Source: a virus
Reading direction: 5' to 3' (one strand)
IMG/VR virus record: IMGVR_UViG_3300010376_000035
Coordinates: 2,543-66,542 of that record
DNA length: 64,000 bases
Part shown: piece by piece, positions 473 to 31,837 of the stretch
Position numbering within the stretch: the first letter of the stretch is position 1
Layout: each line of letters starts with the position of its first letter
Position numbers and translations under genes: made by a program
The notes under the pieces: generated by a model
Seen by the model: the letters and a program-made list of their open reading frames with translations, nothing else
Told to the model about the DNA's origin: nothing
Database searches by the model: none

Positions 473-502
473 CCAAACTAAAAAAACTTAGTTTGCGAGG
501 GG

Positions 503-1105
503 ATGATGCCCAAGCTGGAAGAAGTACAAGCCAAACTTGCCCAGGTGCAACTCGAGCAGGCCGAGATGCAGCTCGAGCAGACGCGCGAATCCGTGGAGGC
601 CTGGAAGAACCAGAAAGAAGAACTGTCGCGGCGCAACGCGCAACGCCAGAAGCAACTGAAGATGGACATCAACGAGCGCGCCAGCCAGGCCAAAGGCTGC
701 ACCCATCGCCAGGGCGGGAGTTTCGGCAATCCCACCGGCGGCAAGGGTCCGAGCGCACTGACCACCGTGATTCTTCCCGACGAGCGGGTATTGATCATGT
801 GTTCGATCTGTCCCATGCGCGTCTTTTCGCCTTTTCCCGGCAATGGCGCCCGCCGGCAGCGCCGCGGCGAGAGCAAGGAGGCGGCCGAGGCGCGCGTGGC
901 CAGATACCAGCAGGAGGTTGCCGAGTTTGAGGCGCTGTCTGCGGAGGCGCGCGACAAGCTGACCGAGGAAGCCGCGCAGCCCATGCATTGCGGCAAGACG
1001 TTTCGCTTTCTGGACGGGGACGGGAATCAGGTGCAGATGCCGGCACCGTGCGATTCCTACGCGCAGGGCCTGGACAATCGCAAAGGAATTCGGCTGGGGA
1101 TCTAG
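503..1105 (+). CDS. Hypothetical phage protein, coiled-coil with Cys/His motifs (200 aa)
   Basis: ORF with GGGA upstream; heptad-rich N-terminus, CTH and CSIC motifs. Confidence 0.7.
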   Translation: MMPKLEEVQAKLAQVQLEQAEMQLEQTRESVEAWKNQKEELSRRNAQRQKQLKMDINERASQAKGCTHRQGGSFGNPTGGKGPSALTTVILPDERVLIMCSICPMRVFSPFPGNGARRQRRGESKEAAEARVARYQQEVAEFEALSAEARDKLTEEAAQPMHCGKTFRFLDGDGNQVQMPAPCDSYAQGLDNRKGIRLGI

Positions 1106-1252
1106 CCGAAACAAGCGGCCCTCGCTGGAACCTTCCAGTGCTGGCGGCCAGCGAGGCCCGGCTGGGAATTGTCCCCCCCATGCCGGGCTTCGTTGTTGTG
1201 GGGGCAGCCGACCAAGGTTGATCCCCACCGAATGGAAAGGAGTGTAGCAGAG

Positions 1253-1390
1253 ATGCCGCTCGTAAAAGGAAAGAGCAAAGGAGCAGTCTCGCAGAACATC
1301 AAGACGGAGATGGCCGCAGGCAAGCCCAGAAAGCAGGCGATAGCGATCGCCATGAGCAAGGCCGGCAAAGCGAAGAACAAGAAGGGGTAG
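1253..1390 (+). CDS. Small basic phage protein (45 aa, [38 protein letters not shown])
   Basis: AAGGAG upstream of ATG 1253. Resembles a widespread small phage peptide type (MPLKKG.S...hS.NI...h..G.P.KQAhAIA). Confidence 0.7.
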
Positions 1391-1393
1391 CGC

Positions 1394-2386
1394 ATGGCGG
1401 TCAGTACCAAGACGCTCCAGGCTGTCTATAACGTGATTGCCGCGCAGGGAATTCCAGACCCGCGGGCGCAGGGCGGCGGCTACGGCGACGACCTGGCGCT
1501 GGACCTGGCCACGCGCGTCATGGCGGACCTGATCACCGAGCGCTTCAACTGGAAATTCAACCGCGCGGTTGCGTGGCCGGTTTACACCAACAGCTGGCAG
1601 CAGGACTATCCGCAGCCGGCGCAGGCCGGCGGCCTGATCGAATGGGGCGAGGATTGCGACATCCTCGATGTCAACAACACCACCATTCCCAAGCCGCTCA
1701 ATTGGGACGGCAGCATCACCTGGGTTCGCCAGCTCACGCGCACATCGATTGCCCGCTGGCGGCCGACGCGCATTTGCTGGATGTACAACGCGGAAATGAG
1801 CTGGGGCACCTGGCCGGGCGCGCTTGTCACGATCTACCCTCTCCTGGGGCCGACCGCGCCGGCCGGGCAGAATCCCTTACTAAACTTTATAGATTCCAAT
1901 GGCAATTACCTGATCCTCTCGACTTTTGGACGCACAGGCCTGACTGCGCCGGCCGCGGCCGCGGCGGCACCTGAAGGGACCACCGTGCCGGATGGCTCGT
2001 GCGTGTGGTCTGTGGTCAGCGGGACGAGCCAGGGATTCCGCGTCGATTTTTTGCCCAACGGCGCGGGCCCCACTTTTCAGCTCACGGCCAGCTATCAGCT
2101 GACCCCGCCGATCTTCACCACCTTCCAGCAGCTTTTGACGCCGATCCCCGACAGTTTCGCGCGCCATTTTCAGACCGGCCTGGAGTGGGCCTGCAAGATG
2201 GCGTCGACCAACCCCGCGGTCAAAAAGGAAGGGCTGGAGAACTACCCGCTCTGGCTGAAAGCCATGGGCACCATGATTCAGCAGGGCGGCAAGGAACCCA
2301 ATGCTTATCGCCTGATCCCCGAAACGAGCGTGGTCGAAAGCCGCTGGGGATGGAAGGGTCCGCATACCGCGGACATGCCGGTGTAA
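1394..2386 (+). CDS. Putative head-tail adaptor / tail tubular A-like protein, paralog 1 (330 aa)
   Basis: Position after the capsid gene; W.FNR...DY and Y.....P.....IPD motifs typical of podovirus adaptor-like proteins. Confidence 0.5.
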   Translation: MAVSTKTLQAVYNVIAAQGIPDPRAQGGGYGDDLALDLATRVMADLITERFNWKFNRAVAWPVYTNSWQQDYPQPAQAGGLIEWGEDCDILDVNNTTIPKPLNWDGSITWVRQLTRTSIARWRPTRICWMYNAEMSWGTWPGALVTIYPLLGPTAPAGQNPLLNFIDSNGNYLILSTFGRTGLTAPAAAAAAPEGTTVPDGSCVWSVVSGTSQGFRVDFLPNGAGPTFQLTASYQLTPPIFTTFQQLLTPIPDSFARHFQTGLEWACKMASTNPAVKKEGLENYPLWLKAMGTMIQQGGKEPNAYRLIPETSVVESRWGWKGPHTADMPV

Positions 2387-2389
2387 GCC

Positions 2390-3097: not shown

Positions 3098-3126
3098 TGT
3101 TAAGGTGATGTCACGCTAGGAGAACC

Positions 3127-6100
3127 ATGCCGAGTCCGTTAGCCCAAGCCGGCGCGACCGTAGAACCGAGCGAGTACGTGGCCCTGGCGATGGACGAGCA
3201 GTTCACGGGCATGTGGACCCAGCGCAGCCCGCTGCGCGATGCGGATGTTCCTTATCTCTATAGAAAGTTTTATTCCGCCTCGCGCTTTGATTCGATGATC
3301 GACGGGATCAACCGCGAGATCAGCGCGCGGCTCACCGATATACGCCGGCCAGGCTCGAGCGTCTACAACAGCCAGGTCCTTCCGCCCATCAACCGTTTTT
3401 ATCCATTCCGCCAATTCGGCGCGAATGGGGAGAATATTCGCGTCATTGCCGACTGCCAAGGCTTCGCCAATCAGCTGCAAAATCCGAACTTCGCCAACGG
3501 TTCCGGCGGGTGGAACTATGAGCCTGGATGGTCTTATACCTATGCTGGCCTGCCTGTACCACCTGGGGTGGGGTATTGTGCGATGTTTGTGGGTCCGGGT
3601 TCGGGCGCAGTTGTAAATCTTCAGCATATCCCCTGCACCACCGGAACGGTGATTGCCGCCAGTTGCTGGGGGCTGGGGGAACATGGGGCAAGCGGCACGG
3701 CAGTGTTGCGCATCAATTTTTACGATGCAAGCAATACTTATCTGGGCAGCAATCAAAGTTCTGCCGTACCGAATAACTACGCCTGGACACAGGTTGGTAT
3801 CAGCGCCGCCGCGAGTTTTTTTACGAACGCTGCATACGCAACCGTCGATTTTATCGTTGAAAGTTCGACCTCAAGCACAGGGCGTTGGTTCGCCTGGGGA
3901 TTCACGGGCAGTCCCGCGCCCGGCGCCGGCACGGTGCGCGATGTCACCGGGCCGAACACCAATCAGATTCTCTGGACGAAGGATCCTGCGGCCGGCAAGA
4001 CCACATTTCTGGGCGTGGGGAACGTTCTCTATGCCGGCGATGGAGTCCAGACGCATCAGATGGTGACGAGCGCGGAGGGCTGGACCGCGAACAAACAGTG
4101 GACGCCAGGCGATTACATTATCGATCCCAACGGGAACATCCAGATGTCCATCGGTTCGCAGACCGGGACCATCGCTTCCATCACGGTGCAGAGTAACGTC
4201 TGCACGGTATTTCTCGCACCCGGCGCGGGCATCCAGATCGCGCCCGGTGTTCAGCTCACCTTCAGCGGGCTTACCACTCTGCCGGCGCTCAATGGCACAA
4301 CCCAGACCATCCCCGCCATTGGCGGCAGCCTGCAATTTTTCTTCGCCTTCACTCATGCCAATCTGGCTCTTAGTTCCGAGACGGGGACCGTCACCACCGG
4401 GAGCGGAGTCAACAGCAATTCTCCACCGACATGGCAGACGGGGATCGGCGCAATCACTGTGGACGGGGGACAACAGTGGGAATGCCGCGGCGGCGCGGTG
4501 CAGAGCATGGGCGGGGCCGGGCCGACGACTGCGCCCACCGTGGTTCAGACAGCCGCCGCTGCGCTTTTTAACAACTGGGCGCCCAATACGTGGTATGCGC
4601 CATCTTTCGTGATTTACGGCGCGGGGCAGTTGCAGCTGCTCATCGGCCCGTCCGCACCGATACAAACAGGCTCCAGCGCTCCATCGTGGAGTACCACTCC
4701 AGGGGGCATCACCACCGAGACGACAGGCACCGGCTCAAATGCGCAATGGAAATGCATGGGATCGGGAAACTGGGTCGGGGGCGCGACTCATGCCGTGGGC
4801 GACTTCGTTGTGGTGAGCTACAACTATGCCACGCCCAGCGGCCCCAGTCCGCTGGTCACATCGCTTTTCAAATGCACTGCGGGAGGAGTCAGCAGCAACA
4901 TAACGCCGAACTGGACCAACGGTTTGGGGACGATCACGAAGGAACCGACCGGATCGCCGGTAACGTGGGTGAACCAAGGAGATAGCCCGCCGGGCTGGCC
5001 GGGATCGAACCAGCTGCTTTCGCTGGATACGACCATTCTGGATTCAAGCGGAAACCTTGAAGCCATTCAGAAAATCGGCAAATCCAGCGCGTCTGCGATT
5101 GTCTGGAATACGAATAAAGGCGGGCTCACGGGCGACAACACGGCCACCTGGCTGAACAACGGTCCCTATTCGGCGGGAAACACGACCGCATGGTACTGGG
5201 CCTATTCCGGCCTGAACTCGATCACCGGGGAGATCACCAATCCTTCTCCGCTCTCGCAGCCGGTAGTTCTCGCGCCCAACATGCACCCGGTGATTCAGGG
5301 GTCGGGGATGCCCAATCCGCCCTACGATTCCATCGTCCTGTGGCGCACCGCGGCCGGCGGCTCGACGCTTTACTACGTCGATCAGTTTCCCAATCCCGGC
5401 ACCGGGCAAACGTGGATCTATACCGACACCACGCCCGACAGCGCTCTTAATACCGCGATGGCCGCGCCCGGTTCGGCCAACACTTCATCGCTGGCCACGC
5501 CCCCACCCTCGACGGCCGTGGCGCCCGAGTACCACTGCGGCCGGATTTTTATGATCGACGGATCCGATGTGATCTACAGCGGAGGACCGGATACGGTTGT
5601 AGGCAACGGCAACACTTCTTTCCCGCCGCTGAATTATTTCCAATTGCCCGAGCAGCCGACCCGGCTGAAATCCGTCACCATGCAGAACGGCGGGCTGATC
5701 GTGGCCTGCGTGGCGAACACTTACGTGATTCTGGGCGAGGGAACCTCGAACAATCCATTCCTGCCGCCCAAGATGTTCATGGAGGGCGTGGGCATCCTCT
5801 CCTATGACTGTTTTTGCATGCGGGGCTCGACCGTCTACGGATTCTCCAACCGATCTAAAGTTTTTAGTTTCGATCCCGGCAACGGGGAGATTGAAATCGG
5901 CTTTTCGATCGGGGACCAGTTCAAGCTCGTCACCACGGGCGGGACGACTGCGGCGCTTTATAATCCGGCGAATTCCTATGTCACCTGGCACGAGCAGAAC
6001 TCGCCCGATACGGGCCTCTATGTGGCCGATGGTACGGTGGGATGGTTCCGCTGGAGCCCGATTGCGCCGCCCGAGTCGGGCTCCCTGTGGAGCCCGCGCG

Positions 6101-6968: not shown

Positions 6969-7179
6969 CATATCGGCTACTCATGTGCGCGCGGGGGGCG
7001 GGGTGGTGACGCCGGCCAGCCCGCCAAGCGCCCCGGCTATGCCCACGCCGCATCCGCCCTATATCGGGCGCCATCCGAGAATGATCAGTTCCCTGCCTTC
7101 GATCTTCTCCACGCCCGATGCGGCGCTGCGCCAGTTTTATGGGCGCAGCACCATTCCCACGGGGAGGGTTGCAATATGA
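6940..7179 (+). CDS. Hypothetical protein (79 aa)
   Basis: GGAGGAG ribosome-binding site before ATG 6940; ATGA overlap with the next gene. Confidence 0.55.
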   Translation: MPSLESRSTDISATHVRAGGGVVTPASPPSAPAMPTPHPPYIGRHPRMISSLPSIFSTPDAALRQFYGRSTIPTGRVAI

Positions 7180-10264: not shown

Positions 10265-12864
10265 ATGGTGACAGTCTACAAGTCGTCCCCGGCACGGTGA
10301 GGCCGCTTAACGGCGCGGCGTCATCGCCTGCGCCCACGGCTAACCCGTCAGTCGTCCCCGGCACGGTGAGGCCGCTTAACGGGGCGGCGCCCACGCCATC
10401 TATGCAGCCAGCGCCCGTTACGCCCATCGCGGGCGGGCAGCCGGCCGCGGCGCCAGAAACTAAAATTAAAGATTTTCATGGGCTGCTGGAGGCGATCGAC
10501 AGTCAGCCCGACTGGATGCACTGGGTTCCAGGCTTCAGCCTCATGCACCAGGCCGTGGGCGGGATGGGTGAACTGGCAAGGACGGTAGAAGGTGGCCGCC
10601 GGCTGATGGGGATGGGATCGATGATGGAGGCCGAGAGGCGATATATGCCCGGCTTTAATCAGGAAGGGCCGCCGGGACCGAACGATGTATTGGGGCAGCT
10701 GGCCGCGCACAAGAGCACCAACATTCAGCAGAGCATGGGCGCAACCGGAGAGACCCTGGGGGAATTCGCTTCTGGTGAGGAGTTGCTGGGATTGCTGGGC
10801 AGAAGCGCGAAGCTGCTGCCGTTTGCCGAACAATTCAAACTCGCCACCGGCTTGGCGCAGATGCTCGACAAGTACCCTCTGGTGGCCAAGTTGATGAAAA
10901 TTGGCATCGCTTCCGCCAATCAGGGCACGGTAGCGGCTGGGCAGACCTATTTGAAAACCGGGGATATTGGAGAGGCGGCCAGAACGGGCCTGATTACCGC
11001 CGGAACCACGGCCCTTGCTGCCCCGGTTATGGCCGGCGGCGCCGCACTTCTCGGCAAAGGCGTGGAGGCGGGCCAGGAAGCGGCCGCAGCCCGGCAGGCG
11101 CAGAAAGCCGGCCGCCAGGTGACAGACGAACAGATTGCCCAGGCCCAGCAAGCCAGACAAACGGCCATTGAACAGAACGCGCAGAACCGGGAGCAGTACA
11201 TGCAAGCCAGGGCCACCCACGCGGCTACGGTGAAAGCGGGCGAAGCCGCGCACGAGGCCACGGTGGTGGAGCCGGCCAAGGCCGCCCACGCCCAGGAAGT
11301 GGAAGCTGGAAAGGCCACTCATGCAGAACAGGTGCGCCAGGCCAAAGCCACTCACGCGGCCACGGTCGAAGCCGGCGAAGCCGCCCACGCCGAAACGGTA
11401 CGCCAGGCCAGAACCGCATACGGGCAGGAAGTGGCAGCTGGCGAAGCCGCCCACGCCGAAACGGTGCGCCAGGCCAAGGCCACCCATGCGGCCACGGTCG
11501 AAGCCGGCCAGGCCGAGCATGCGCAACGGGTAGAACAGGCTACCCAGAGAGCCACGGCCGCGGCCCAGGCCGAAGCAGCAGCGGGGCGCGCCGAAGCTGC
11601 TCAGACCTACGGCCGAACCGCGGGTCAGGCGATCGAGCCGCATCTGCGCGCCGTCGAAGAGGCGGGCCAGGGACGGCCTGTCACCATGGCCCAGCCTGGC
11701 GGGGCGGCGCCGGTCGTAGTCGGTACGACCCGGCCGCTGACCAGCATCAACACCAATGAAATTTTGAACCGGGTAGGCGATTACACCACGGCGCGCGATG
11801 AATTCCGCACCGCACTCAACGATTCGATGGATGCCATCGATTCGGAAACCGGCGGCAAATTCCGCGATCTTAATGCAGAAGTGGCAGCCGCGCAAACGCA
11901 CATGCATAACGATCCTCTCGATGCGGAGGCGGTGCGGGCTTATAAACAGAAGCTGGGCGAACTGGACGACCTGATTTCCAAAACTAAAAGTGTGCGGCCG
12001 GATTATGTGTCTGCGGTGCGTTCCGGCTGGCGCCAATACTACGTGATGGGCGACATCGCCAAGGGATTAGACAAATCGCTGATGGGCGTCCCCGGCGGTA
12101 GCGCTGTGAGCCAGGCACAGCGCGGGATCAACGGCAGAGTGGGCACAGCCGAGTTAGGGAAGCTGGTAATCGCTCACGGCCGACCGGCTATCGCGGAAGC
12201 CATGGGTGGCGAGGACCGGCTTAGAACAATCGAGTCGGTCTTTGAAAAGATGTCCACCAACAACGGCCGCGCCCAGATGAACAAAGCCATTCTCAACATA
12301 GCCAAGTATCTGGAGCCGGTTGCGCCCTACGAGCCGCCGCAATACGTTCCCCCTGCACCGTACCAAAAGCCGGAATTTGTGGCGCCGCCCAAATATAAAG
12401 CGCCGGAATTCGTTCCCCCTGCGCCCTATAAAGCGCCGGAATTCAAGGCACCGGAATATCAGCCGCCTGCGCCTCCCGAGCGGCCGGCGCGCGTACCCGT
12501 GCCCAATGTGCCCTCGAGGCCGCTGGCCCTCAAACCCGAACCGACGGCCCAGGGCGCGATCGGCAAGGTTCTAAGACATACGGTAGCCACGACCGCAGCC
12601 ATAGGAGCGTACAGGGCCGGTGGAGGTTTCATCGGCGGGACCATGGCGGCAGCAACCGCGGAAGCGGCCCTGCATTCGGTCCCGGTCATTGCGCGCCGGG
12701 TGCAGGACGCCATGCTCTCGAATCCGCAAGTCGCGAAAAACATTCTCTATGCGGTCGAGTACGGCGCCAAGCCGGAAAACTATGGCCCGTTCATCGCTCA
12801 GATGGTCAGAAAACTAAACGAACAACCTAAACAGGAGGAAACGAATGCCAACACTTCTCGGTGA
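10261..12864 (+). CDS. Putative internal virion / ejection protein with internal repeats (867 aa)
   Basis: ATGA coupling; glycine-rich hydrophobic segments; THAATVEAGEAAHAETVRQA repeats and a PxPY/KAPEF proline-rich tract. Confidence 0.6.
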   Translation: MNGDSLQVVPGTVRPLNGAASSPAPTANPSVVPGTVRPLNGAAPTPSMQPAPVTPIAGGQPAAAPETKIKDFHGLLEAIDSQPDWMHWVPGFSLMHQAVGGMGELARTVEGGRRLMGMGSMMEAERRYMPGFNQEGPPGPNDVLGQLAAHKSTNIQQSMGATGETLGEFASGEELLGLLGRSAKLLPFAEQFKLATGLAQMLDKYPLVAKLMKIGIASANQGTVAAGQTYLKTGDIGEAARTGLITAGTTALAAPVMAGGAALLGKGVEAGQEAAAARQAQKAGRQVTDEQIAQAQQARQTAIEQNAQNREQYMQARATHAATVKAGEAAHEATVVEPAKAAHAQEVEAGKATHAEQVRQAKATHAATVEAGEAAHAETVRQARTAYGQEVAAGEAAHAETVRQAKATHAATVEAGQAEHAQRVEQATQRATAAAQAEAAAGRAEAAQTYGRTAGQAIEPHLRAVEEAGQGRPVTMAQPGGAAPVVVGTTRPLTSINTNEILNRVGDYTTARDEFRTALNDSMDAIDSETGGKFRDLNAEVAAAQTHMHNDPLDAEAVRAYKQKLGELDDLISKTKSVRPDYVSAVRSGWRQYYVMGDIAKGLDKSLMGVPGGSAVSQAQRGINGRVGTAELGKLVIAHGRPAIAEAMGGEDRLRTIESVFEKMSTNNGRAQMNKAILNIAKYLEPVAPYEPPQYVPPAPYQKPEFVAPPKYKAPEFVPPAPYKAPEFKAPEYQPPAPPERPARVPVPNVPSRPLALKPEPTAQGAIGKVLRHTVATTAAIGAYRAGGGFIGGTMAAATAEAALHSVPVIARRVQDAMLSNPQVAKNILYAVEYGAKPENYGPFIAQMVRKLNEQPKQEETNANTSR
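10281..10382 (+). repeat. 33-bp exact direct repeat x2 (10281-10313, 10350-10382), encoding VVPGTVRPLNG
   Basis: AGTCGTCCCCGGCACGGTGAGGCCGCTTAACGG occurs twice, 69 bp apart. Confidence 0.9.
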
Positions 12865-15299: not shown

Positions 15300-18200
15300 A
15301 TTTTTTAGTTTTTTGCTTGCCGTAAGTGCTGCGGCTTACGGCCAGGTGAACCCGCACACCCAGATCCGCTGGCCCGCGAGCTGCCGCACCAGCGACGGCA
15401 AAATCTATAACTGGGTCACGAATGATTGCGTGGATCTAAACGACATCGACCCCAATACGCAACTGACCTGGCCCACTAGCTGCAATACGCCGGGAGCGGT
15501 CTACGATGCCACGGCGGGGGAATGCCCCAACAACATCAACAGCATTAACGTGACGAACCAAGTGAACTATCCGGCCAGTTGCGCTACGACGGGCATGGTC
15601 TATGATCCCGCGACCAAGCAATGCACGTATAGCGTGAACCACATCAATCCCGGCACCCAGATGCTGTGGCCTTCCAGTTGCACACCGGGGATGGTCTACA
15701 ACCCTTCCGGTAATACGTGCGTTGCGATGGGGACCGGCAACAATCCCGGCGGGACAAATTTGCAGATGCAGTACAACAACGGCGGCTTTTTCGGGGGGAT
15801 GAACGGAGTCACCTACGACAACAATGGCGGCATCGCGGCGACTGGCACTCTTGCAGCGGGCACGATGCTACAAGCGCCGACGATAGCATCCGGCGGCGCG
15901 CCGACGCTCGATCTTCGCAATAAGACGTTTGCCGGTGGGCTGAAGGCGGATGGCGCAACTGATAATGCCGCCGTGATGACGGCAGCATGGAATGCGCTTC
16001 CTGCTACCGGCGGACGGTTGCTGATCGTGTGCGGAGGCACTCTGGCAACCGCTTGCTATTGGGACAATCCCGCCGCTTTCAACTGGGCCGGTCACACTCC
16101 CGTCACCTTTGAGATTCAGGGTATTCTGCGCACCGGAACCACGCTCAATATCCCGCCCAACTCCGGGACGATAAACTTTATCGGCAAAAACGGTAGCGGC
16201 CCGATACAGTTTCAAGCCCCCGGAGACATTTCGGAAATCTATGTGCGGCCTCTTACCACGCCAATAAGTGGGACTCTGAATACGGCGATTGCTCCCACCT
16301 ATTACGGAACCGGAAACCCTACCGCAACCGTTCCGGTAGCTTGTAATTCTTCGACGACCGGCGCAACCTATCAAGACCTCAATCAAGCCAATTCGGTGTT
16401 ATGGCAGTGCATCTCTACGACGGGAACCATCACTGCCGGGGCCATGAGTACGCTGGTTTTGGCGTCAGCGGCAGGATATGCCAAAGGCGACAGGATTACG
16501 GTAGCTGGAGCAGGAACTTCCGGCGGCACTTTGACATCCATCATCAGCGCCATCTCCGGTACTAGCATCACGCTGGGCACCGCCGCCACTACCGCCGTAT
16601 CCGGTGCGGCAGTCAGCATGGTTGGCAATTATGCCGGGTACTCCATCACGCCCGTCAATGGCTGGATTCAGGGCATATTGCAAACCCTTACGCCTTCGGC
16701 TAATGGATACATATACGGCGGCAGCACGAACCTCACTGGAAACGTGGCAGGAACGAATGGAACCGTGCTGGGCGTGGCCGATTATCAGGTATGCGACCTT
16801 GCCACGGTAAGCCGCACTACTACGCGGGTCACGGGAACCATGCCCTCGACCACTGGCTCGATTACTTCCGGCCAGAGCACTCTTACCATTCCTGCCGGAA
16901 TCACCATCTCCAATGGATCGGCGATCACGATCATAGGCGCGGGGGTTTCCACTTCCCCCCTGCGCACCTACGTCCTCAGCGGCGGCGGCACCACCTCCCT
17001 GACCATCGCCGGGACGGCGGCGAGTACTGTAACCAACCAGGCGGTCAGCGAAAACTGTCATATCCCGGTGAATATCGGCATCAAGATTGCCGGAGTTACA
17101 GACTCTTCGTTCAATGGACAGTGGGGGGGAACTGCGGGGCAATGGCAGATCGTGAATGGCGATTACGTTGCCAACACTCTCGTATGGAGCGTACCCAGCG
17201 GCACAACCGCTACCAGTAGCGGCGGAACCATCACCGGGCTGAATGAAGACTCGCCGGAAACTGTTCCGGTTGCGGACAATACCAGCACGACATTTACGGC
17301 GCGATTCTATCGGCCTCATGTGTCCACGGCGCAATTTTCCGGGGCGGGAATGGAGTTAAATGCTGGCGGGGCTGGGCAGTTGCTGAAAGACCTTCACATC
17401 GTGGCGTCAGGCCCGCAACTGGTGGTTGGCAATAACTCCTACAAATCGGTTCTGGATAATATCGGCCTGTTGGCATCGGGCACTTGCTCCGCGTTTGCCA
17501 GCCAGAGTCTGTCTGGATGGGCGATGGATATACAAGGCGCGGCATTTACCTACTTCAAAGATGGTTCCATTGGTTCAAGCTGTTACCCGTGGTCGATCCA
17601 TCTCTACAATGCGTTCAATACCATCTTCGGAGGAACAGGGCCGTTATATCTGGACAACACATGGATGATTGACGCTATAAAGCTGGATCATGGAGCCACG
17701 GGCGCATTTCTCAACAAGGTTGTCTGTGAACAGTGCTCACGGGGCATTGTCACGTATGACGACAGTCTTGGTTACTGGAGCGGCAACCAGCAACAGGTGG
17801 AAATAAAGCAGAGCGGTTTTCAGGACAACCCCGCCGGAGTCACACAGTGCGGAGTGGCCAGCCTTTTTCCCGATTCGGTGTCGAGTATCACCGTGCAAGG
17901 GAGCGGCATCACTTGCATTAAAAACGACTATGCGGGCGGAACAATCATGAACATTGCTCCGCCCAATGCCGGGGCGCAATACGATCTAAACAATACGACG
18001 GGACCGGCGGGGATCATTCAAGCCAAATCTCTGGAAGCAGAACTGCGTGGAGTCGGTGCGTCTATGGCTCCATCGGTTCTGCCGTATGCATCCCAAAACA
18101 TCAAGACCAACCCCACGACATGGCCGCTGGCTACCTGTACCCTGGCGTCCTCTACGGCAGAAGCGCCAGACGGTACGGCTACCGCAGCATCGCTTAACGG

Positions 18201-19673: not shown

Positions 19674-19961
19674 ATGGCCAGGGAACTAAAACTTAATCCC
19701 GCCTCCAAAGGCCACGCGCCCGCGGGCGCCCACGGCCGCGCCGCGGTGCATGCGCTGGGAAGAACGAAAACCACGGGAAACTTCAAGAAGATCGAGGCGG
19801 CCAGAGGCAAGGGCGCGGCGATCGCGGCCTACCAGAACAAACTCGCCGCCCACAAGCACAACGGCCCGGTGGCGCATGTGGCCGGCGGAATGCACTATGG
19901 CGCTCACGCAGGGTTAGACGCGATCACCGCCCAGGAAGGATGCTGCAGTCTTTGCAAGTGA
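19674..19961 (+). CDS. Small basic His/Ala-rich hypothetical protein (95 aa)
   Basis: AAGGAG upstream; compact ORF. Confidence 0.6.
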   Translation: MARELKLNPASKGHAPAGAHGRAAVHALGRTKTTGNFKKIEAARGKGAAIAAYQNKLAAHKHNGPVAHVAGGMHYGAHAGLDAITAQEGCCSLCK

Positions 19962-21363: not shown

Positions 21364-22977
21364 ATGTCGAGAATTTTTCGCATGACCAGATTTTTCGCGC
21401 AGGATTTCATGGGGCTGCGCTTCGTGGAATTCGTTCCGAAAGGACGCATGACCGTGCTGACCGGCAAGAACTCGGCCGGCAAAACTTCCATCATCACCGC
21501 CATCTGGAGCGTGTTCCTGGGCGCGAAGTATGTTCCGCAAGTGCCCACGCGCCGCGGGGCGACCGATCACGAAATCCGCGTCACCATCGACGGGGAGCAG
21601 TCCTTCATCGCCAAGCGCAACCAGCGCAGCCCGCTGCGCATCGAGATGCAGCCCGGCTCCAAGGCCTGGGGCACTCCGCAGGAGATGATGGACTCGATCA
21701 CCAACAAGTTCATGCTGGACCCGATCGCGTTTGTGAAGCTGGGCCGCGGCGACGGGCCGGGCATCAAGGGGCCGGCGGACGGCAAGAAGGCGCAGGTGGA
21801 TTATCTGAGCCAGGCCATCACGCTGGCCGTGGATCCGACCAAGCTGGACACGGAGAACGAAGCCGATTTCAGGCGGCGCCGCGAGATCGGCCGCGATGTG
21901 GATATGCTCAAAGGCCAGATCGCCGGCATCCCGGTGAACCCCAATCTGCCCGCGGAACGGCCGGAAATCGACGCCATTCAGGCGCGGATCCGCGCCGCCA
22001 ACGAGCACAACTCCACGGTGGTGGCGCAGCTCGAGCGCCGCCAGCAGCTGGCCCAGGCTCTGGCCGAGGCCGAGAAGAACGAGCAGCGCAACCGCGATCT
22101 GATCGGCGTGACCTCCAGCAACGTAGAGGGCCTGGCGGTCGAGATCGAAGCCCTCAATCCGGCCATGAACACGGCAGCCGATATTCGCGTTCAGCTCGAG
22201 GAATTGCACGAGAGAAGCGCCCAGCTGGGCAATCGCGGAGAGCGGCTGACGGAAACCATTGCCGAGGCTTGCGGAAAGGCGTTGGGATGCTTCAACGACG
22301 CGCAGGAACGCATTCAGCAGGCCAGGCAGGAGATGGAGATCGCGCGCAAGACGCTCACCGCCGCCGAGAAGCAGCGGCGGCCGCTGGCCGAAGCGGTGGC
22401 CGAGGCGCGGCTGGCTCTGGAGCAGGCGCCCGTGCCGGTCATGCAGGACATCACGCCCATTGCCGAGGAACTGACCCAGGCGCAAGCCGTCAATCGCGAA
22501 ATGGACCGCCGCGACCGCGCCCAGGAACTCACCAGGCAGAAAGACGAACTCGAGGCTCAGGTGCGCGCTCTGACGCGCGCCATGGAACTGAGGGACCAGC
22601 AGAAGGCAGACGCCATCATCAACGCCAAAATGCCGCTCGAGGGGCTCACCTTCAACATCGATAAGGGCAAAGAGGAAGTGCTTTATCAGGGTGTTCCGCT
22701 CACCCAGCTGGGCGAGGCGCAGCAGATCAAGGTTTCAATCGCCATCGGCCTGGCCATGCAGCCGGAACTGCGCCTGGTCTGCATCCCCAACGGGGAAGCG
22801 CTGGATGATGACAGCCTGGCCGAACTCGAGGAGATGGCCGAGGAGAAGGATTTTCACGTAATCATCGCCAAGGTGGACTCCAGCGGCACGATGGGCATTT
22901 TTCTGGAGGAGGGAGAAGTCAAGCGCGAAAATCCTTCCCCGGCTAAAAAAACTAAAACGAAGGAGGAACTTGCCTAG
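21364..22977 (+). CDS. SMC/SbcC/RecN-like coiled-coil ABC-type ATPase (537 aa)
   Basis: N-terminal Walker A GKNSAGKTS, about 250-aa coiled coil, C-terminal signature-like LGEAQQIKVSIAIG and degenerate Walker B / D-loop LVCIPNGEALDD. Confidence 0.85.
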   Translation: MSRIFRMTRFFAQDFMGLRFVEFVPKGRMTVLTGKNSAGKTSIITAIWSVFLGAKYVPQVPTRRGATDHEIRVTIDGEQSFIAKRNQRSPLRIEMQPGSKAWGTPQEMMDSITNKFMLDPIAFVKLGRGDGPGIKGPADGKKAQVDYLSQAITLAVDPTKLDTENEADFRRRREIGRDVDMLKGQIAGIPVNPNLPAERPEIDAIQARIRAANEHNSTVVAQLERRQQLAQALAEAEKNEQRNRDLIGVTSSNVEGLAVEIEALNPAMNTAADIRVQLEELHERSAQLGNRGERLTETIAEACGKALGCFNDAQERIQQARQEMEIARKTLTAAEKQRRPLAEAVAEARLALEQAPVPVMQDITPIAEELTQAQAVNREMDRRDRAQELTRQKDELEAQVRALTRAMELRDQQKADAIINAKMPLEGLTFNIDKGKEEVLYQGVPLTQLGEAQQIKVSIAIGLAMQPELRLVCIPNGEALDDDSLAELEEMAEEKDFHVIIAKVDSSGTMGIFLEEGEVKRENPSPAKKTKTKEELA

Positions 22978-24090: not shown

Positions 24091-24132
24091 AACTAAAAAG
24101 CCCGAAGCCAGGGCGGCTCGGGCTTTTTAGTT
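24091..24132. terminator. Bidirectional intrinsic terminator
   Basis: 15-bp stem AACTAAAAAGCCCGA / TCGGGCTTTTTAGTT with an A-tract and a T-tract on either side. Confidence 0.75.
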
Positions 24133-25945: not shown

Positions 25946-25947
25946 AC

Positions 25948-25978
25948 AAACTAAAAGCCGGCCCCGAGGGACCGGCTT
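25948..25978 (-). terminator. Intrinsic terminator upstream of parA
   Basis: On the minus strand: AAGCCGG-TCCCTCGGGG-CCGGCTT followed by TTAGTTT. Confidence 0.6.
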
Positions 25979-26006
25979 GGTTAACAGAAAGAGCCATTAT
26001 CGGACG

Positions 26007-26237
26007 CTATTGCGCGGGCGATTTGAGGGCAAATATCCTGCAGTTATATTCCCGCAAACCTTGGAGATCCGCGCGGTAATCTAAATGTTGACCACATTCA
26101 AGGCACACCCATTTGGGGGTAGGCCCCTGGTTTCGTAAAAGCTGGAGACAGCACAGATGTTCACACTGATCAGATTGCTCGTCTCTTTGTTTGCGTAGGT
26201 CGGCCAGTAGTTGAGTAAGGCGTTCGTCAATGTTCAT
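26007..26237 (-). CDS. Hypothetical Zn-finger protein (76 aa)
   Basis: AAGGAG upstream; CEH...CLECG motif. Confidence 0.6.
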   Translation of the reverse strand: MNIDERLTQLLADLRKQRDEQSDQCEHLCCLQLLRNQGPTPKWVCLECGQHLDYRADLQGLREYNCRIFALKSPAQ

Positions 26238-26296
26238 CGCGACAGCTCCTTGCAGATGCGCAGCACCAGCATAAGAATTTTTATAGTTTTAGTCAT
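26234..26296 (-). CDS. 20-aa coupled mini-ORF (MTKTIKILMLVLRICKELSR)
   Basis: ATGA overlaps at both ends, bridging two genes. Confidence 0.35.
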   Translation of the reverse strand: MTKTIKILMLVLRICKELSR

Positions 26297-26772
26297 TGGG
26301 CGCCCGCCTTTTTCGGTTCCCACTCCCCGAACTGCTCAAACAGGTAATCGATGGCGGGCTGGGCATCCCTCGACCAGAGCCGCTCCACCAGCTCCCACTC
26401 GCGCAGCTCGACGGCCTGGGCGGCTTCCTCATCCCAGCCGGAAGTGTCTACCAGGGCTTTGGCCCAGGCATCGGGAAAGATGCGGTCCCCGGTGACGGCA
26501 GGGAAGCGGACGCCATTGGGAAAGCGGCCGGCGGGCTTGTGATAGCGCGGCGCCACTTCGTCCAGCCACACGAGCAGCTGAGAGGCGATGTTTTCCTGTT
26601 TGTTCGCGTCATACTTGAGCACATATTTTTCGGCGTAGGCAAGCCACAGCAGCGCCTGCAGCTCATCGAAGAAGACCGGCCGCAGCATGGTGTCCGTGGT
26701 GCTGTTGATTACGGCCCAGGCGTCCGTACTCCAAGCGTCATTTTTCTCAAACTTGATCAGGCGAAGTCCCAT
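26293..26772 (-). CDS. Hypothetical protein (about 159 aa; likely start MGLRLIKF)
   Basis: GAGGAGG upstream; protein-like composition; ATG immediately after the upstream stop. Confidence 0.65.
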   Translation of the reverse strand: MGLRLIKFEKNDAWSTDAWAVINSTTDTMLRPVFFDELQALLWLAYAEKYVLKYDANKQENIASQLLVWLDEVAPRYHKPAGRFPNGVRFPAVTGDRIFPDAWAKALVDTSGWDEEAAQAVELREWELVERLWSRDAQPAIDYLFEQFGEWEPKKAGAQ

Positions 26773-26773
26773 T

Positions 26774-27037
26774 TTAGTTTTCATCCTCCTCATCGTCGCC
26801 TTCCAGAGCGGCGAGGCGCTGTTCGTGATCCACAACGATAATGCGAACGTAACGCCCCAGGCGTTTGATGTGCTGGTCCGTTTTCAATTGCATCTGGGAA
26901 ACCAGCTCGAGTGTGTGCGTGATCGCATCAACACGTTCCTCTGTTTTCAGTTGCATCTGGGAAACTAGCTCGAGCGTATGCGTAATCGCTTCGAGGCGTT
27001 CCTCGATGGTAGGCTTTGGCTCATTGCTTTCTGTCAT
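26774..27037 (-). CDS. Coiled-coil protein with a tandem about 21-aa duplication (87 aa)
   Basis: EERLEAITHTLELVSQMQLKT / EERVDAITHTLELVSQMQLKT; ends HEQRLAALEG. Confidence 0.75.
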   Translation of the reverse strand: MTESNEPKPTIEERLEAITHTLELVSQMQLKTEERVDAITHTLELVSQMQLKTDQHIKRLGRYVRIIVVDHEQRLAALEGDDEEDEN

Positions 27038-27054
27038 TTTCAAATGTCCCCTTT

Positions 27055-27312
27055 TTAACCTTTATGATTGGCTTCGAGCTTATCGACCGAAAGCCGGCCG
27101 CGCTTGTTTAACAGCAAGGTGATGGCTTCGCGCAAGAGCTGGGCCACAGTCGTGCTTTCCGTGGCAGCTAAGATTTTTAGTTCCCGCGCGACTGGCGGCA
27201 GAAAATGGCCGGCGATGACCACACGGCCCACGCGGCCCGGCTGTTTCGGATTCCCGCTGGCCGTCATGGTGATGGCCGCGGGCGCGGTTTTCTTGGCGGT
27301 TTTAGTTGCCAT
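27055..27312 (-). CDS. Second ribbon-helix-helix protein, paralogous to the parA partner (85 aa)
   Basis: RVVIAGHF.P.VARELKILAATESTTVAQLLREAITLLLNKRG aligns by eye with RLIGAHF...QLLGEAINDLCAKYG. Confidence 0.75.
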   Translation of the reverse strand: MATKTAKKTAPAAITMTASGNPKQPGRVGRVVIAGHFLPPVARELKILAATESTTVAQLLREAITLLLNKRGRLSVDKLEANHKG

Positions 27313-27338
27313 TGTTGTCCCCTTTCATGTATCCCTTT

Positions 27339-27635
27339 TCAGTATTCGCTGCGAAGCAAGATGGTTGTGCAGGAACGATCGCGCTCAGTGATGATGTAGA
27401 TTTTTTGGCCATCGGGCAGGATGTACATGCTCAGGATCCGATCGCAATCTTCCGGGTCCGGCTGGATCGCGGCTTCATTCATCGCCTTATCCTCGGCGCC
27501 CAGGTCGCCACAGTCGCCGGATTCGTGGCGCTTGAGAAAGATAATCGGGAACGTCTTGTTGTCTTCCAGGGCGCCCAAAGCGCCCTGGGTGGCCAGGCAT
27601 TGGCCTAATGCAAATCGCGGTGTGCTAGCAAACAT
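27339..27635 (-). CDS. Conserved plasmid/phage early-region protein (RH..GD.G...ITE.DRS.TTILL..EY family, 98 aa)
   Basis: F.LGQ..ATQGAL...RHESGDCGDL..ED...N...RILS.Y...IYIITERDRSCTTILL.SEY matches a family common on mobile elements; function unknown. Confidence 0.75.
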   Translation of the reverse strand: MFASTPRFALGQCLATQGALGALEDNKTFPIIFLKRHESGDCGDLGAEDKAMNEAAIQPDPEDCDRILSMYILPDGQKIYIITERDRSCTTILLRSEY

Positions 27636-27658
27636 GTGTCTCCATCCTTCCGCTTTCG

Positions 27659-27687
27659 AGGTTAGCGTGTAAAAGTATACTTGTCAA
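27659..27687 (-). promoter_or_regulatory. Sigma70-like promoter with palindromic operator in the spacer
   Basis: Minus strand TTGACA-17-TAACCT; spacer starts AGTATACTTTTA (palindrome AAGTATACTT at 27673-27682). Confidence 0.7.
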
Positions 27688-27786
27688 CATCGGGAACAAG
27701 TTGAGTTGTGGCGGCTCGGGGCGCGGGCGCGGCGGCCGGCGCCGAAGAGTACAACCCCCATGCCGTAGGACACAACTAAGAGGTTA

Positions 27787-28062
27787 TTAGTTTTCACTAG
27801 CGGCCCCCTGCGGAACGATCCAGGCGACCAGGCCGGCGGAATCCTCGCGCTCGAGGATCTCAGCTCGGGAAGTGCCCACGATCGCGGCGCCGTCACGGGT
27901 AACACCTAAGAACTGGACGCGGCCGGTTACGTTGGCCAGCTCTTGAACGGTTTGAAAGTCGGATTCAGGAACATAGAAGCCCAGACCCATGGCAAGCTGT
28001 ATGTAGCGGCCGGCCGTGAGCGGACCCAACAGGGAAGGCATCGTAAATGGTGTGAGAGCCAT
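27787..28062 (-). CDS. Hypothetical protein (91 aa)
   Basis: AAAGGAAA upstream; lies in the co-oriented operon. Confidence 0.6.
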   Translation of the reverse strand: MALTPFTMPSLLGPLTAGRYIQLAMGLGFYVPESDFQTVQELANVTGRVQFLGVTRDGAAIVGTSRAEILEREDSAGLVAWIVPQGAASEN

Positions 28063-28110
28063 CGGAGTGTTTTCCTTTTGTGGGCCGGATTACGCGCCGG
28101 CCGCGCGGTT

Positions 28111-28254
28111 TTAGTTTTTCTTTAGAACTGCAATTGCTTCATCGATCCTGGCCAACATTAGCTTGGCTACGTGGTCCGTGCGGTTTTCGTACAGCTTGCG
28201 GAGGTCTTCCAGCTCCTGCAGGCTCATTTGGTTTACGGGTTTGCCTTTTGTCAT
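28111..28254 (-). CDS. Small helical protein (47 aa, MTKGKPVNQMSLQELEDLRKLYENR...; below ORF-track cutoff)
   Basis: GAAAGGGGGACAA directly upstream of the ATG; amphipathic helix. Confidence 0.55.
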   Translation of the reverse strand: MTKGKPVNQMSLQELEDLRKLYENRTDHVAKLMLARIDEAIAVLKKN

Positions 28255-28426
28255 TTGTCCCCCTTTCCATGCACCGGACTTTGGACCGGCTGCCAGTGCA
28301 TTACAGCTGGACGGGAGCGAAGCGCCCAGCTGCCATCTGCAAAACTAAAAACAGGTTTACTTTTCGGATACATTCATAAAAGTTCACCCTTTCCTTTCTG
28401 GTAGTTGCTGGGATGTTATTGAACTA

Positions 28427-29635: not shown

Positions 29636-29665
29636 GGTTTGATCTCCAGTGATTTCTTAAAAGTT

Positions 29666-30490
29666 TTAGTTCTGAGAATCGGCCGCGGCCGCGATGGACT
29701 GGGCAAATTGCTTCGCCCAGTCCATCGATTCGCGCGGAGAATAGCAGAGTCCCTGCTTATGGCTGATATGAATGAATCCATCGGGCGCGTATTCTTCAGT
29801 GCGCGTACCACAATTGTCGATATCTTTCCCTTGCGCTAGCTCTGAGAGCCCAAACAAGCAGCGGCGAAAGAATGATGGATGGCCAATGATGAATTGAAAG
29901 CGCTGGATATCGATCGCCTGGCCAGCTGCTTTGATCGGAATTAAAAACTTATAGCTATTGCCATCCCGATTGGTATAGGCGCGCACAACGGTCACTTCAA
30001 CCGAATGGCCCTGCAGCTCGAGCGAATTCACCATGGCAATAATCGCTTCGCCGCGGTTCTTTAAGCGCTCCGCGGATATATCGCCCAATCCCCCAATCTC
30101 TACAGCGAACCGCAAGACGCGGCCGACCGGTTTCTGAATCGGTTCGGAGCACTGCCAGTATTCTGGCTCACCACTGCAGAACGAAGAGACATCGAGCACT
30201 TCGCCGCAAACGTCATAGTAATAACGCATATCGTCAGACGCGCTTGTCAGTTTTGGCAAAGTTAAATTCTTAATTTCGGGCGCGCTCCATTGGCCAAATT
30301 CGGCCGCATTGAGCGCGTCAGAATAACTCATGTTTCCGTTCCAATCGTCCGATTCGCGCTTGATAGAGCGCATCCAATTCACCGTCTGATTGGAGCGCAG
30401 GAGCGAAAATAGCTCCTGCAGTCCAATCGTATGAACCGCGTCTGGAGTGAACCGCGGTGTATGCTCTTTTGGTGTTTTCGTCCGGGCCAT
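29666..30490 (-). CDS. Partner of the MoxR-like ATPase (vWA-like / CobT-like position, 274 aa)
   Basis: DVCGEVLDVSSFCSGEPE.W motif and alpha/beta C-terminal half; directly downstream of the AAA gene, as in phage MoxR/CobS-vWA pairs. Confidence 0.55.
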   Translation of the reverse strand: MARTKTPKEHTPRFTPDAVHTIGLQELFSLLRSNQTVNWMRSIKRESDDWNGNMSYSDALNAAEFGQWSAPEIKNLTLPKLTSASDDMRYYYDVCGEVLDVSSFCSGEPEYWQCSEPIQKPVGRVLRFAVEIGGLGDISAERLKNRGEAIIAMVNSLELQGHSVEVTVVRAYTNRDGNSYKFLIPIKAAGQAIDIQRFQFIIGHPSFFRRCLFGLSELAQGKDIDNCGTRTEEYAPDGFIHISHKQGLCYSPRESMDWAKQFAQSIAAAADSQN

Positions 30491-30515
30491 TTTTAGTCTC
30501 CGTTTTTAGTTCCGC

Positions 30516-31586
30516 TTAAAAAGTTGGCAGGGGATACGATGCGAGAATGGCGCGTACGCTCACGCGGTCATAACCGCGGAACACTACCATTTCTGCAACT
30601 TGCTCCACTGGCAGGCCAACCGAAAGCAACTGGGAGCCATCGATGGACGCGCGTTGGGTGGCGGTCACCTTGGGATGAGGGACCTTGCAGAATTCGCGAA
30701 TGGCGCGCACCCAAGTGACCCATGAATCGGAACGGTCGAATTTTTTCGCTGCCAATTGGCGCTCGAGAGTCTCGTCAGTATCCCATTGGACAAAGCAAAA
30801 CCTATCGCGAACAGCGCCATCGAGCGCGCGTCTATCGCTAAATTGAACAGTCGCACCCAAGCACGGCGTGTTGTCAGTCGCGATGCATACGAAGTCTGGA
30901 TGGCGGTTTGTAATGCCGCATGGGAAGGATGCCTTGCCATTGGCTAGCGCGCCATTGAGCGAACCAAGCAAGTTGCCAGACGCAAGCGCCAATTCATCGA
31001 GCAGGAAAATTCCGCCTTGCGAGTAAGCCTTATAAAAATCGCTAGCGATATAGTTTCCAGTTGCGTCCATGTATCCCATGAGACGCGATTCGGTCATTTG
31101 CGCCTGCAATCCAAGGTAGTAATAGGGAAGCGCAAGCAAGTCTGCAATTTGCTTTGCGGCCGTGCTTTTACCAGAGCCCGCCTCGCCCCAAAGGAATACG
31201 TTTTTGCGGAGCGATACCAAGCGAACAACTAGATCGAAGTGCTCGTGCTTTGTACCTTCGACTGTTCCAATTGTCTGGCCATTCTGGATGTAAACGGTTT
31301 TTAGTTCTTTGGGCAGATTGGCTAGTGCTTCATCGATGCGGCCAGAAACAAATTCCTCGAGTTCCGCTGTAATCTCGTCGCGCTGAATCGTGAGAAAGGG
31401 CTGAATGCTAGCGGCGAGAACTGCAGCCAGCGAATCATTGGCGGTTGATTCGCGGCCGATTGGCGCGCGATTTTTGCAGGCAACATGATACTTGCTTGTA
31501 TCGCCCCGTCTGTTCCAAGAAATTTCTTGGCCCACTTCTATCGGACTCTGGCAGATGCTGCAGATTCCCGTTTCGTTCGCAATCAT
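30516..31586 (-). CDS. MoxR/CobS-like AAA+ ATPase (AAA_5 type) with N-terminal Zn-binding motif (356 aa)
   Basis: NVFLWGEAGSGKS Walker A, GGIFLLDE Walker B, HPDFVCIATDN, LDGAVRDRF; N-terminal CSIC...HVAC. Confidence 0.88.
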   Translation of the reverse strand: MIANETGICSICQSPIEVGQEISWNRRGDTSKYHVACKNRAPIGRESTANDSLAAVLAASIQPFLTIQRDEITAELEEFVSGRIDEALANLPKELKTVYIQNGQTIGTVEGTKHEHFDLVVRLVSLRKNVFLWGEAGSGKSTAAKQIADLLALPYYYLGLQAQMTESRLMGYMDATGNYIASDFYKAYSQGGIFLLDELALASGNLLGSLNGALANGKASFPCGITNRHPDFVCIATDNTPCLGATVQFSDRRALDGAVRDRFCFVQWDTDETLERQLAAKKFDRSDSWVTWVRAIREFCKVPHPKVTATQRASIDGSQLLSVGLPVEQVAEMVVFRGYDRVSVRAILASYPLPTF

Positions 31587-31632
31587 TTGGGTTTCGCTCC
31601 GTTTGGTTCGTTTGAATCAACCAACGAAACCC

Positions 31633-31661
31633 ACTGTAAAGATTAAAAGTATACTTTGCAA
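31633..31661 (-). promoter_or_regulatory. Sigma70-like promoter of the telomere-proximal operon, with the same operator as 27659..27687
   Basis: Minus strand TTGCAA-17-TACAGT; spacer AGTATACTTTTAATCTT (palindrome AAGTATACTT at 31647-31656). Confidence 0.7.
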
Positions 31662-31723
31662 CTAGTGAACATGACGAATCGGCCGCAAGTGTAAGAAAAA
31701 TCAGGCAAAAAAAATTATGCGAA

Positions 31724-31837
31724 CCATCGCAGAATTTGCGCGCGGATCGGTTGCGGATCGGTTGCGGATCGATCGGAAAATGGCCGTCAGAAACTAAAAT
31801 TATAAAATCCATCGCAGAATTTGCGCCTAATTTGCGC
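31724..31837. repeat. Subtelomeric direct and tandem repeats
   Basis: CCATCGCAGAATTTGCGC at 31724-31741 and 31809-31826, partial AATTTGCGC at 31829-31837; tandem GCGGATCGGTT x2.7 at 31742-31771. Confidence 0.85.

Follow-up and report, generated by a model that had tools for sequence, protein, structure and literature searches.

The octamer AACTAAAA is dispersed through a stretch of 64,000 nucleotides (the window) that spans positions 2543-66542 of IMG/VR record IMGVR_UViG_3300010376_000035, here called C1 (68,976 bp), from a soil phage-plasmid. It was found that this word is strongly enriched, that it is selected at the level of DNA in both orientations and that, within the phage family, it is associated exclusively with a two-gene cassette, one gene of which encodes an 85-residue protein with a ribbon-helix-helix (RHH) fold and a matching dimer model. 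According to the favoured reading, to which we give a probability of roughly 55%, AACTAAAA would be the double-stranded recognition word of the phage's own RHH protein, which would act as a genome-wide silencer. That the protein binds the word, and that binding represses, is what we infer from the association.

Enrichment of the octamer and the level at which it is read

A pattern search of the window returned 38 exact copies of AACTAAAA. Nineteen of these are at the positions listed in an earlier note on this DNA, all of which proved to be exact matches, and the other 19 are their mirror images; the window is a perfect palindrome with zero spacer and an axis at 31945/31946. Twelve copies lie within the last 8 kb before the telomere, as the note had counted, and the near-copies that it listed are genuine one-mismatch sites. 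The 2.5 kb of the record beyond the window were also searched and contain four further tandem copies at C1:486-525, which brings the total per arm to 23 copies in 34.5 kb. With one or two near units added to the four exact ones, this array comprises five to six units, and it sits in a 77-bp gap directly upstream of the ATG at C1:531.

Dinucleotide shuffles of the window gave an expectation of 0.64 copies (maximum 4), against the 38 found, and AACTAAAA is the top over-represented word core of the genome at k = 7, 8 and 9. A set of 500 codon-preserving shuffles, which keep the amino-acid sequence, the codon usage of each gene and the intergenic base content, yielded 0.77 copies (standard deviation 0.85, maximum 4) against 23 observed; the same shuffles on three relatives gave 1.69, 0.96 and 0.25 expected against 23, 14 and 15 observed. 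The strong over-representation described earlier was thus confirmed, and it survived the control for codon and amino-acid content and intergenic composition that had been set beforehand as a refuting test. One-mismatch variants are only mildly enriched, and AACTAAAA is therefore a sharp word. Across 46 copies the consensus extends to RR-AACTAAAA-a, and no promoter-like partner is fixed beside it. Another eight genomes or contigs are enriched, at 10-25 copies each. A literature search for the octamer returned unrelated papers only, none of which mentions the word in this sense, and a megablast search of the arm against the phage collection gave no matches.

Placement and orientation were analysed for 95 copies in seven enriched genomes. 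The concentration at gene junctions that the note had proposed is real in terms of density, which falls from 1.51 copies per kb at no more than 30 nt from gene ends to 1.12 in the remaining intergenic DNA and to 0.33 deep in coding sequence, yet 52 of the 95 copies lie deep in genes. The contexts are mixed and include the gap between ribosome-binding site and ATG, stop codons, positions just past starts, the flanks of GC hairpins, tandem and inverted pairs, and long genes on either strand. Copies with a stop codon had been described as many; a real stop codon is supplied by about 10-15 of the 95. With respect to the local gene, 57 copies are sense and 38 antisense, where strand composition predicts about 70-75% sense, and in the relatives G004 and G005 the split is about 50:50. 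The orientation of the octamer is not selected, and the A-rich sense strand accounts for the sense share. A mostly mRNA-sense orientation is accordingly no special property of the word, and the flip of orientation with transcription, although the strand switch is seen both here and in the relative G001, is explained by the same A-rich sense strands.

The in-gene copies are built from AT-rich codons, as had been noticed, and these are rare synonymous codons in conserved genes of the enriched genomes. In the gene for a 1170-residue protein, the peptide S-K-V-F-S-F is encoded here by TCT AAA GTT TTT AGT TTC; the same site reads TCT AAA TGT TTT AGT TTC in G001 and, for S-K-V-F-S-F, TCC AAG GTG TTT TCC TTC in the motif-free G002. 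Coding of the form TCT AAA ... AGT TTC yields, on the antisense strand, the octamer together with its inverted partner (CTAAA-N3-TTTAG). Likewise, the capsid peptide N-I-L-V-L-T-T is encoded through ATT TTA GTT TTG in G003, G004, G005 and the P0010 phage, which are enriched and belong to another clade, and through ATC/ATT CTN GTG CTN in the motif-free sisters G168, L118 and L057. Antisense copies were found to be under selection as strong as that on sense copies. Survival of the codon-preserving shuffles, recurrence in relatives and the use of rare synonymous codons in conserved proteins bear out the earlier proposal of a selected cis-signal.

A weak half-site in inverted order often comes after the word. 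TAG occurs within 16 nt downstream of 29 of the 95 copies, against a background of 8%, and TTTAG within the same distance of 11 copies, against 0.9%. The peak in the TTTAG spacing corresponds to the 17-bp palindrome AACTAAAA-N-TTTTAGTT, of which G004 has a perfect example. The units of direct pairs are 6-14 bp apart, inverted pairs occur and there is one array of five to six units; most units are single. Isolated sites were predicted to fold as RNA no better than their shuffles (z -0.9 to +0.3), and no Rfam family covers the octamer sites. Because codons are retained on the antisense strand, orientation is free, inverted partners are present and neither an RNA fold nor an Rfam family was found, the observations point to an octamer that is read as double-stranded DNA and speak against one that is read as RNA or as a polar signal on a single strand.

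Distribution in the phage family and association with an RHH cassette

About 160 related loci were collected by means of the capsid protein, and the enrichment in related phages that the earlier note had proposed to check was found in several of them. AACTAAAA ranks first among dispersed octamers (z 11-20, at 7-20 separate places) in this genome and in G001, G003, G004 and G005, and weaker enrichment was seen in L085 (6 copies in 21 kb) and L053 (4 in 12 kb). Close relatives can be free of the motif, with 0 copies in 27.6 kb of G002 and 1 in 43.9 kb of G168. On the capsid tree the enriched genomes are patchily distributed, in at least three places, beside motif-free sister lineages. The motif-free relatives contain no comparable dispersed word; the k-mers that rank highest in them are local repeats, either tandem or coding. 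When this genome is compared with G001, a copy persists within about 100 nt at about 7-8 of 18 loci, frequently with a changed orientation or copy number, which looks like turnover of sites under a local requirement.

Relatives of the capsid gene were found in two metagenome-assembled genomes (MAGs) of Terracidiphilus, and Acidobacteriota are therefore the likely hosts; a search of species genomes with a single capsid protein gave no matches. Host enrichment, a further check proposed in the note, was found neither in the MAGs nor in the family or the phylum, and a host-wide motif was rejected. The two Terracidiphilus MAGs hold 36 octamers in 7.2 Mb against 198 for the reversed control, so that the word is rarer there. 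A 10-mer search of 151 Acidobacteriaceae genomes showed no excess, with the word at or below its reversed control, and the same relation to the control was seen in 400 of 401 Acidobacteriota genomes. The survey included three unpublished genomes (G009, G032 and G201), and the conclusion is independent of them. The genome G215 (92 copies against 16 for the control) was rejected as an enriched host; all its copies lie in one repeat resembling an insertion sequence, with identical flanks. This repeat (e.g. L211-L250) occurs in about 90 near-identical copies, identical over at least 75 bp, on both contigs and within open reading frames of about 200-230 codons, and it is probably a massively expanded insertion sequence.

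The genes common to only this genome and G001 included those for an RHH protein and a 98-residue protein. Their genes form a cassette at 27055-27635 (minus strand) in the telomere-proximal regulatory arm, upstream of parA. The RHH gene, the candidate for the reader of the octamer, lies at 27055..27312 (minus; Pfam PF20605, E 2.4e-16), and the gene for its 98-residue partner (27339..27635, minus) is always immediately upstream of it. The cassette as a whole is always 0.4-1.2 kb upstream of parA and in the same orientation.

A homolog search with the RHH protein returned 15 proteins of 66-81% identity, and the contigs encoding them were fetched on protein homology alone, regardless of the motif; octamer counts for ENA/NCBI contigs refer to the fetched stretches rather than whole records. 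All seven of the new contig lineages are enriched, with 0.48-1.45 copies per kb, and the octamer is the top or near-top word in six of the seven (L262 has 6 copies in 12 kb). A merged RHH contig of 34.6 kb carries 25 copies, including the diagnostic capsid site, and its capsid is 97% identical to that of G004 and 40% identical to that of this genome. As judged from these sequences, the link between RHH gene and octamer holds in two deeply separate structural (capsid) clades. Among 14 family contigs that contain parA, the nine with the RHH gene have 0.48-1.45 copies per kb, and the five without it have 0-0.06. All nine positives have the RHH gene and the gene for the 98-residue partner, which about 90 other family contigs all lack; no other gene shows this pattern.

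The RHH gene itself retains the word. The octamer and its inverted partner are found at the codons for E-L-K-I-L-A (GAA CTA AAA ATY TTA GC) in eight of nine homologs, and the predicted beta-strand and first helix of the protein are nearly invariant across homologs. In the model the helices span residues 39-51 and 56-70. The homodimer model scored 0.82, against 0.00 for the best control, with residues 29-37 paired in antiparallel; three runs share at least 95% of the contacts, and the predicted local distance difference test score (pLDDT) of the partner is at least 83. The mark of 0.82 was reached by 20 of 30 proteins solved as one-chain pairs and by 1 of 23 solved as single chains, and the result may reflect likeness to solved RHH dimers rather than prove a dimer. 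A profile of 14 RHH homologs matched none of the solved RHH structures (omega, ParG, Arc, CopG) at E values up to 1, and the 98-residue partner has no family in Pfam, the PDB or the Atlas.

Several other candidates were rejected as correlates. The relative G168 shares the AAA protein that flanks the cassette (75%), ParA (68%) and the SMC-like protein with enriched genomes, yet it is motif-free, and its cassette slot holds an ArdC-like gene and others instead. ParA, a ParG-like RHH protein and AAA-222 all occur in G168 and do not qualify, and XRE-195, an XRE protein of 195 residues, is missing from most positives. The SMC-like ATPase, the tailspike, the proteins of 148 and 188 residues and a 450-residue protein of G001 either occur in motif-free genomes as well or are not DNA binders. 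None of the structural or core genes tracks the octamer, and scans of IMG/VR with RHH and MoxR patterns gave nothing new, one of them returning G001 alone. The suggestion in the note that the two RHH proteins be tried for binding proved apt in that one of the two is the only DNA-binding gene that tracks the octamer.

The cassette is preceded by a promoter-like site (27659..27687, minus strand), in the spacer of which the palindrome AGTATACT, different from the octamer, directly follows a TTGACA box; the same arrangement is present at 31633-31661. This palindrome is conserved at the homologous promoters of L251, L255, L257, L261, L262 and L263. The promoter palindromes of motif-free relatives differ (GTGAGCAC in G002 and G168, GAGTACTC in G174), which suggests a second, separate pair of repressor and operator that is also lineage-variable. 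The slot between AAA-222 and parA holds ArdC-like or methyltransferase-like genes in relatives (G168 972-1853; L251 8267-9415; L261 676-1731; L262 2959-4077) and looks like a variable early island of anti-defence type. A Rep3-type plasmid replication initiator is encoded beside the par genes of the RHH-bearing L262 (7063-7851), which fits a plasmid lifestyle of the family.

Proposed mode of action and alternative explanations

In the mechanism that we propose, the RHH protein would be made from the two-gene cassette in the telomere-proximal regulatory arm, and its dimers would contact each 7-8 bp unit through a two-stranded beta-ribbon placed in the major groove. Adjacent units, direct or inverted, would permit cooperative binding, and with about 25 units across the replicon one small protein could act genome-wide. 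Its most likely action would be the global silencing of lytic genes in a linear plasmid-prophage, by occlusion of promoters and by road-blocks at junctions. The sites in and before the RHH gene would allow autoregulation, and a strong operator would be formed by the array at C1:486-525, which precedes the first structural-block gene. The 98-residue partner may modulate the RHH protein, or may itself be the reader.

Several points weigh against this proposal. The association between cassette and octamer is one of genetic linkage, and the word could in fact be read by the 98-residue partner or by the product of some gene of the mobile module that escaped notice. Kinship through this module means that the nine positive contigs do not count as nine independent events; they represent at least two structural clades. 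The enriched G003, G005, L085, L053 and G004 stop short of the regulatory arm, so that they would carry the cassette by inference, which for G004 draws on the P0010 phage, whose capsid is 97% identical. Omega requires two to four contiguous units, but most sites here are single; more than half of the copies lie deep in genes, which is unusual for operators; and antitoxins, from which the Pfam family takes its name, normally have one operator only.

A broader and more tentative idea is that the cassette is a portable genome-marking module. It would move between distant linear phage-plasmids and drive recoding of the whole genome, down to its conserved capsid genes, to about 1 copy per 1.5 kb, the word would decay when the cassette is lost, and the RHH protein would tell self from host or competitor DNA. 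If this were true, the protein would serve silencing, immunity, segregation or protection, and the word would be a phage-borne analogue of uptake sequences or Chi that is read by the phage's own protein.

It is unlikely, in our view, that the same RHH protein reads the word for another purpose, with the dispersed units serving as centromere-like or pairing sites for ParA-driven segregation or for compaction of the plasmid-prophage, much as the heptads of omega function as parS. Sites that lie within genes and are free in orientation are typical of chromosome-organising proteins, as the parS, matS, Noc and SlmA sites illustrate, and the constant place of the cassette upstream of parA would suit such a role. 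The array at C1:486-525 would suit it as well, since omega needs at least four contiguous units to activate ParA (PMC9499535). However, every parA of the family, whether in an enriched genome or not, is directly followed by the gene of a small RHH-like partner of its own, which does not track the octamer, the ParA type differs among the enriched genomes (26-30% identity), and the four- to fivefold higher density at junctions than in genes is better suited to the control of expression. A shade less probable is a different reader altogether, be it the 98-residue partner, another product of the exchangeable early module or a factor of a particular host lineage, with the cassette as a mere marker of that module or host. 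The evidence for the RHH protein is association, the 98-residue protein is equally exclusive and has no known family, and the module also has the distinct promoter operator AGTATACT, so that more than one specificity travels with it; anti-defence-like genes occupy the slot in relatives (ArdC-like in G168; methyltransferase-like in L251, L261 and L262). On the other side, the RHH protein has the sole recognisable DNA-binding fold among the exclusive genes, its nearly invariant beta-strand and first helix match an invariant word, the word is retained within the coding sequence for the protein itself, and no sampled host genome is enriched.

The two readings that the earlier note had put forward are both disfavoured. 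One takes AACUAAAA in mRNA as a processing or translational-regulator site at cistron boundaries, in line with the enrichment at gene boundaries, the copies between ribosome-binding site and ATG or with a stop codon, and the twister ribozyme that adjoins one copy. It is very improbable in the face of 38 antisense copies out of 95, of which those in conserved genes are held across genomes by synonymous codons, and of selection on antisense copies as strong as on sense ones; isolated sites have no excess of folding and no Rfam family, and the orientation bias does not exceed composition. Least probable of all is a polar word of the Chi or KOPS kind, read directionally by a recombination or translocation motor. 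The dominant strand does switch near the convergence of transcription here and in G001, and the family encodes an SMC-like ATPase, but the switch falls where the coding strand changes, the A-richness of sense strands accounts for it, G004 and G005 have no polarity, and many sites have palindromic partners. Moreover, the SMC-like gene is also present in motif-free relatives, and about 550 candidate host genomes show no enrichment.

The favoured reading, in which the RHH protein silences the genome through AACTAAAA, resembles known dispersed-operator systems in its working, yet it fails defining features of both of the closest, the stoperators and the omega heptads. Stoperators of Cluster A mycobacteriophages (L5 gp71-type) are dispersed repressor sites that silence the whole prophage; they are 13-mers, bound by a monomeric two-domain helix-turn-helix (HTH) repressor, strictly oriented along transcription and located in short intergenic spaces and promoters (PMC9283540). 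The likeness consists in more than 20 copies of one short asymmetric word throughout the genome, many of them at junctions and stop codons, and in the fact that the word goes with a particular phage-encoded repressor, here a candidate, while mosaic relatives differ (PMC9283540). Unlike a stoperator, the word described here is 8 bp long (10-11 with flanks), its candidate reader is an RHH dimer, its orientation is free (57:38) and more than half of its copies lie in genes through synonymous codons; the XRE/HTH proteins do not track it, and the only DNA-binding gene that does is that of the RHH protein.

Omega, the RHH ParB protein of pSM19035, recognises 7-bp units that may be direct or inverted, and it is both a regulator and a centromere binder (PMC9499535). 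The predicted system would share with it a small RHH dimer, units of 7-8 bp in either order and a gene near parA. In contrast, the units of omega are confined to three promoters, where 7-10 of them adjoin in an array, whereas the units here are mostly single and are scattered through about 35 kb that include the structural genes. No sequence similarity of the present RHH protein to any solved RHH protein was detected, and a second, ParG-like RHH protein already partners ParA here.

Global silencers with a dozen or more dispersed operators, some of them in genes or at a distance from promoters, are also found in KorB of the IncP plasmids, which acts at OB sites, and in C1 of the phage-plasmid P1. 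KorB is an HTH protein of the ParB family and C1 has a different fold, and their sites are 13-17 bp long. The half-sites of OB (TTTAG/CTAAA) happen to resemble the partial palindrome described here, but their order is reversed, and no ParB-type protein was seen among the proteins searched here.

The predicted pairing of a protein with a word is a concrete one for a family of uncultured soil and peat phage-plasmids in which almost no gene has a known function. It would mean that codon choice throughout a phage genome, even in conserved structural genes, can be shaped by a very small regulator. The genome-wide signature itself comes and goes among close relatives along with a single mobile cassette. 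If binding were confirmed, dispersed-operator control as known from stoperators, omega and KorB would extend to an RHH protein with orientation-free sites within genes, and octamer density would become a simple marker of regulatory or immunity type in these phages.

Individual copies and further features

In the structural part of the arm, the copy at 476..483 (plus strand) lies 20 nt upstream of the ATG at 503 and has an inverted partner (AAACTAA-N6-TTAGTTT; fold of the inverted repeat, z -4.1), and G001 has copies at the equivalent junction. The copy at 5862..5869 (minus) is antisense within the gene for the 1170-residue protein and is the one with the CTAAA-N3-TTTAG partner in synonymous codons. 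Two sense copies are found inside an 867-codon gene (10458..10465 and 11982..11989, both plus), and an antisense copy (15303..15310, minus) is at the junction of the genes for the 188- and 1212-residue proteins. The copy at 19684..19691 (plus) lies 10 nt past the ATG of a 95-codon gene. At 22950..22957 (plus) the word lies where the SMC-like gene ends, ahead of the following ribosome-binding site, and G001 has a copy at the homologous place.

An inverted pair with its left arm at 24091..24098 (plus) and its right arm at 24125..24132 (minus) surrounds a GC hairpin that forms a bidirectional terminator (-28.4 kcal/mol, z -6.5). The copy at 25949..25956 (plus) abuts a GC hairpin between parA and the upstream operon, its minus strand being the T-tract of a terminator, and the one at 28109..28116 (minus) gives the stop codon of a 46-codon gene and is followed by a short GC hairpin. 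Identity of the octamer with intrinsic terminators was rejected, since hairpin T-tracts are present at only 4 of the 19 window copies (24091, 24125, 25949 and 28109). A stop/start junction (GAA AAC TAA A ATG) is spanned by the copy at 26772..26779 (minus). Two copies belong to the RHH gene, one at the E-L-K-I-L-A codons (27175..27182, minus), with a partial inverted partner and in the place shared by eight of nine homologs, and one at codons 3-5 (27300..27307, minus). About 140 nt upstream of the cassette start, a palindromic pair of one-mismatch copies, AACTAAGA-N3-TATTAGTT, was located at 27774..27792.

Further along the arm, the DUF7192 gene takes its stop codon from the copy at 29664..29671 (minus), and the next ATG follows after 29 nt. 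Behind the copy at 30504..30511 (minus), between the MoxR-like and DUF7192 genes, a direct repeat of seven bases (ACTAAAA) comes shortly ahead of the ATG, and another copy (31299..31306, minus) is inside the MoxR-like gene in sense orientation. The last copy of the arm (31792..31799, plus) is 150 nt from the palindrome axis, that is, the telomere, and one-mismatch copies are found at 31853 and 31865; in G001 a copy is likewise present about 250 nt from the contig end. The 19 mirror-image copies of the second palindrome arm lie within 32094..63417.

The copy at 28343..28350 (plus) abuts the 5' end of a match to the twister type-P5 self-cleaving ribozyme in Rfam (28274-28341, minus strand; 48.2 bits against a gathering score of 37.6, E 2.9e-7). 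This match is in the early arm, just upstream of the 46-codon gene.

The final 40 bases of G001 (L007) are the same terminal sequence, GCTAAATTAAAT, as that at the axis here (31900-31946), and L251, an unrelated 83-kb family contig from ENA, is also a mirror-image dimer, around 5860. The shared end and the second mirror dimer favour a real hairpin end over an accident of assembly. The left end of the record (C1:1-114) is inside a homolog of a gene for a 737-residue portal-like protein. G001 runs 9.4 kb further than this end, through a terminase-like gene, and the true monomer is therefore longer than 34.5 kb; the record is incomplete.

Repeats of other kinds were observed in motif-free members of the family. 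L109/G158 carries clusters of heptamer-like repeats (CTAACCCC/CTAATCCC) in five places, including 7014-7035, 12176-12197, 15152-15180 and 15489-15503, which may be another dispersed binding array. In L111/G159, seven tandem 42-bp repeats of iteron-like appearance are found at 6200-6470.

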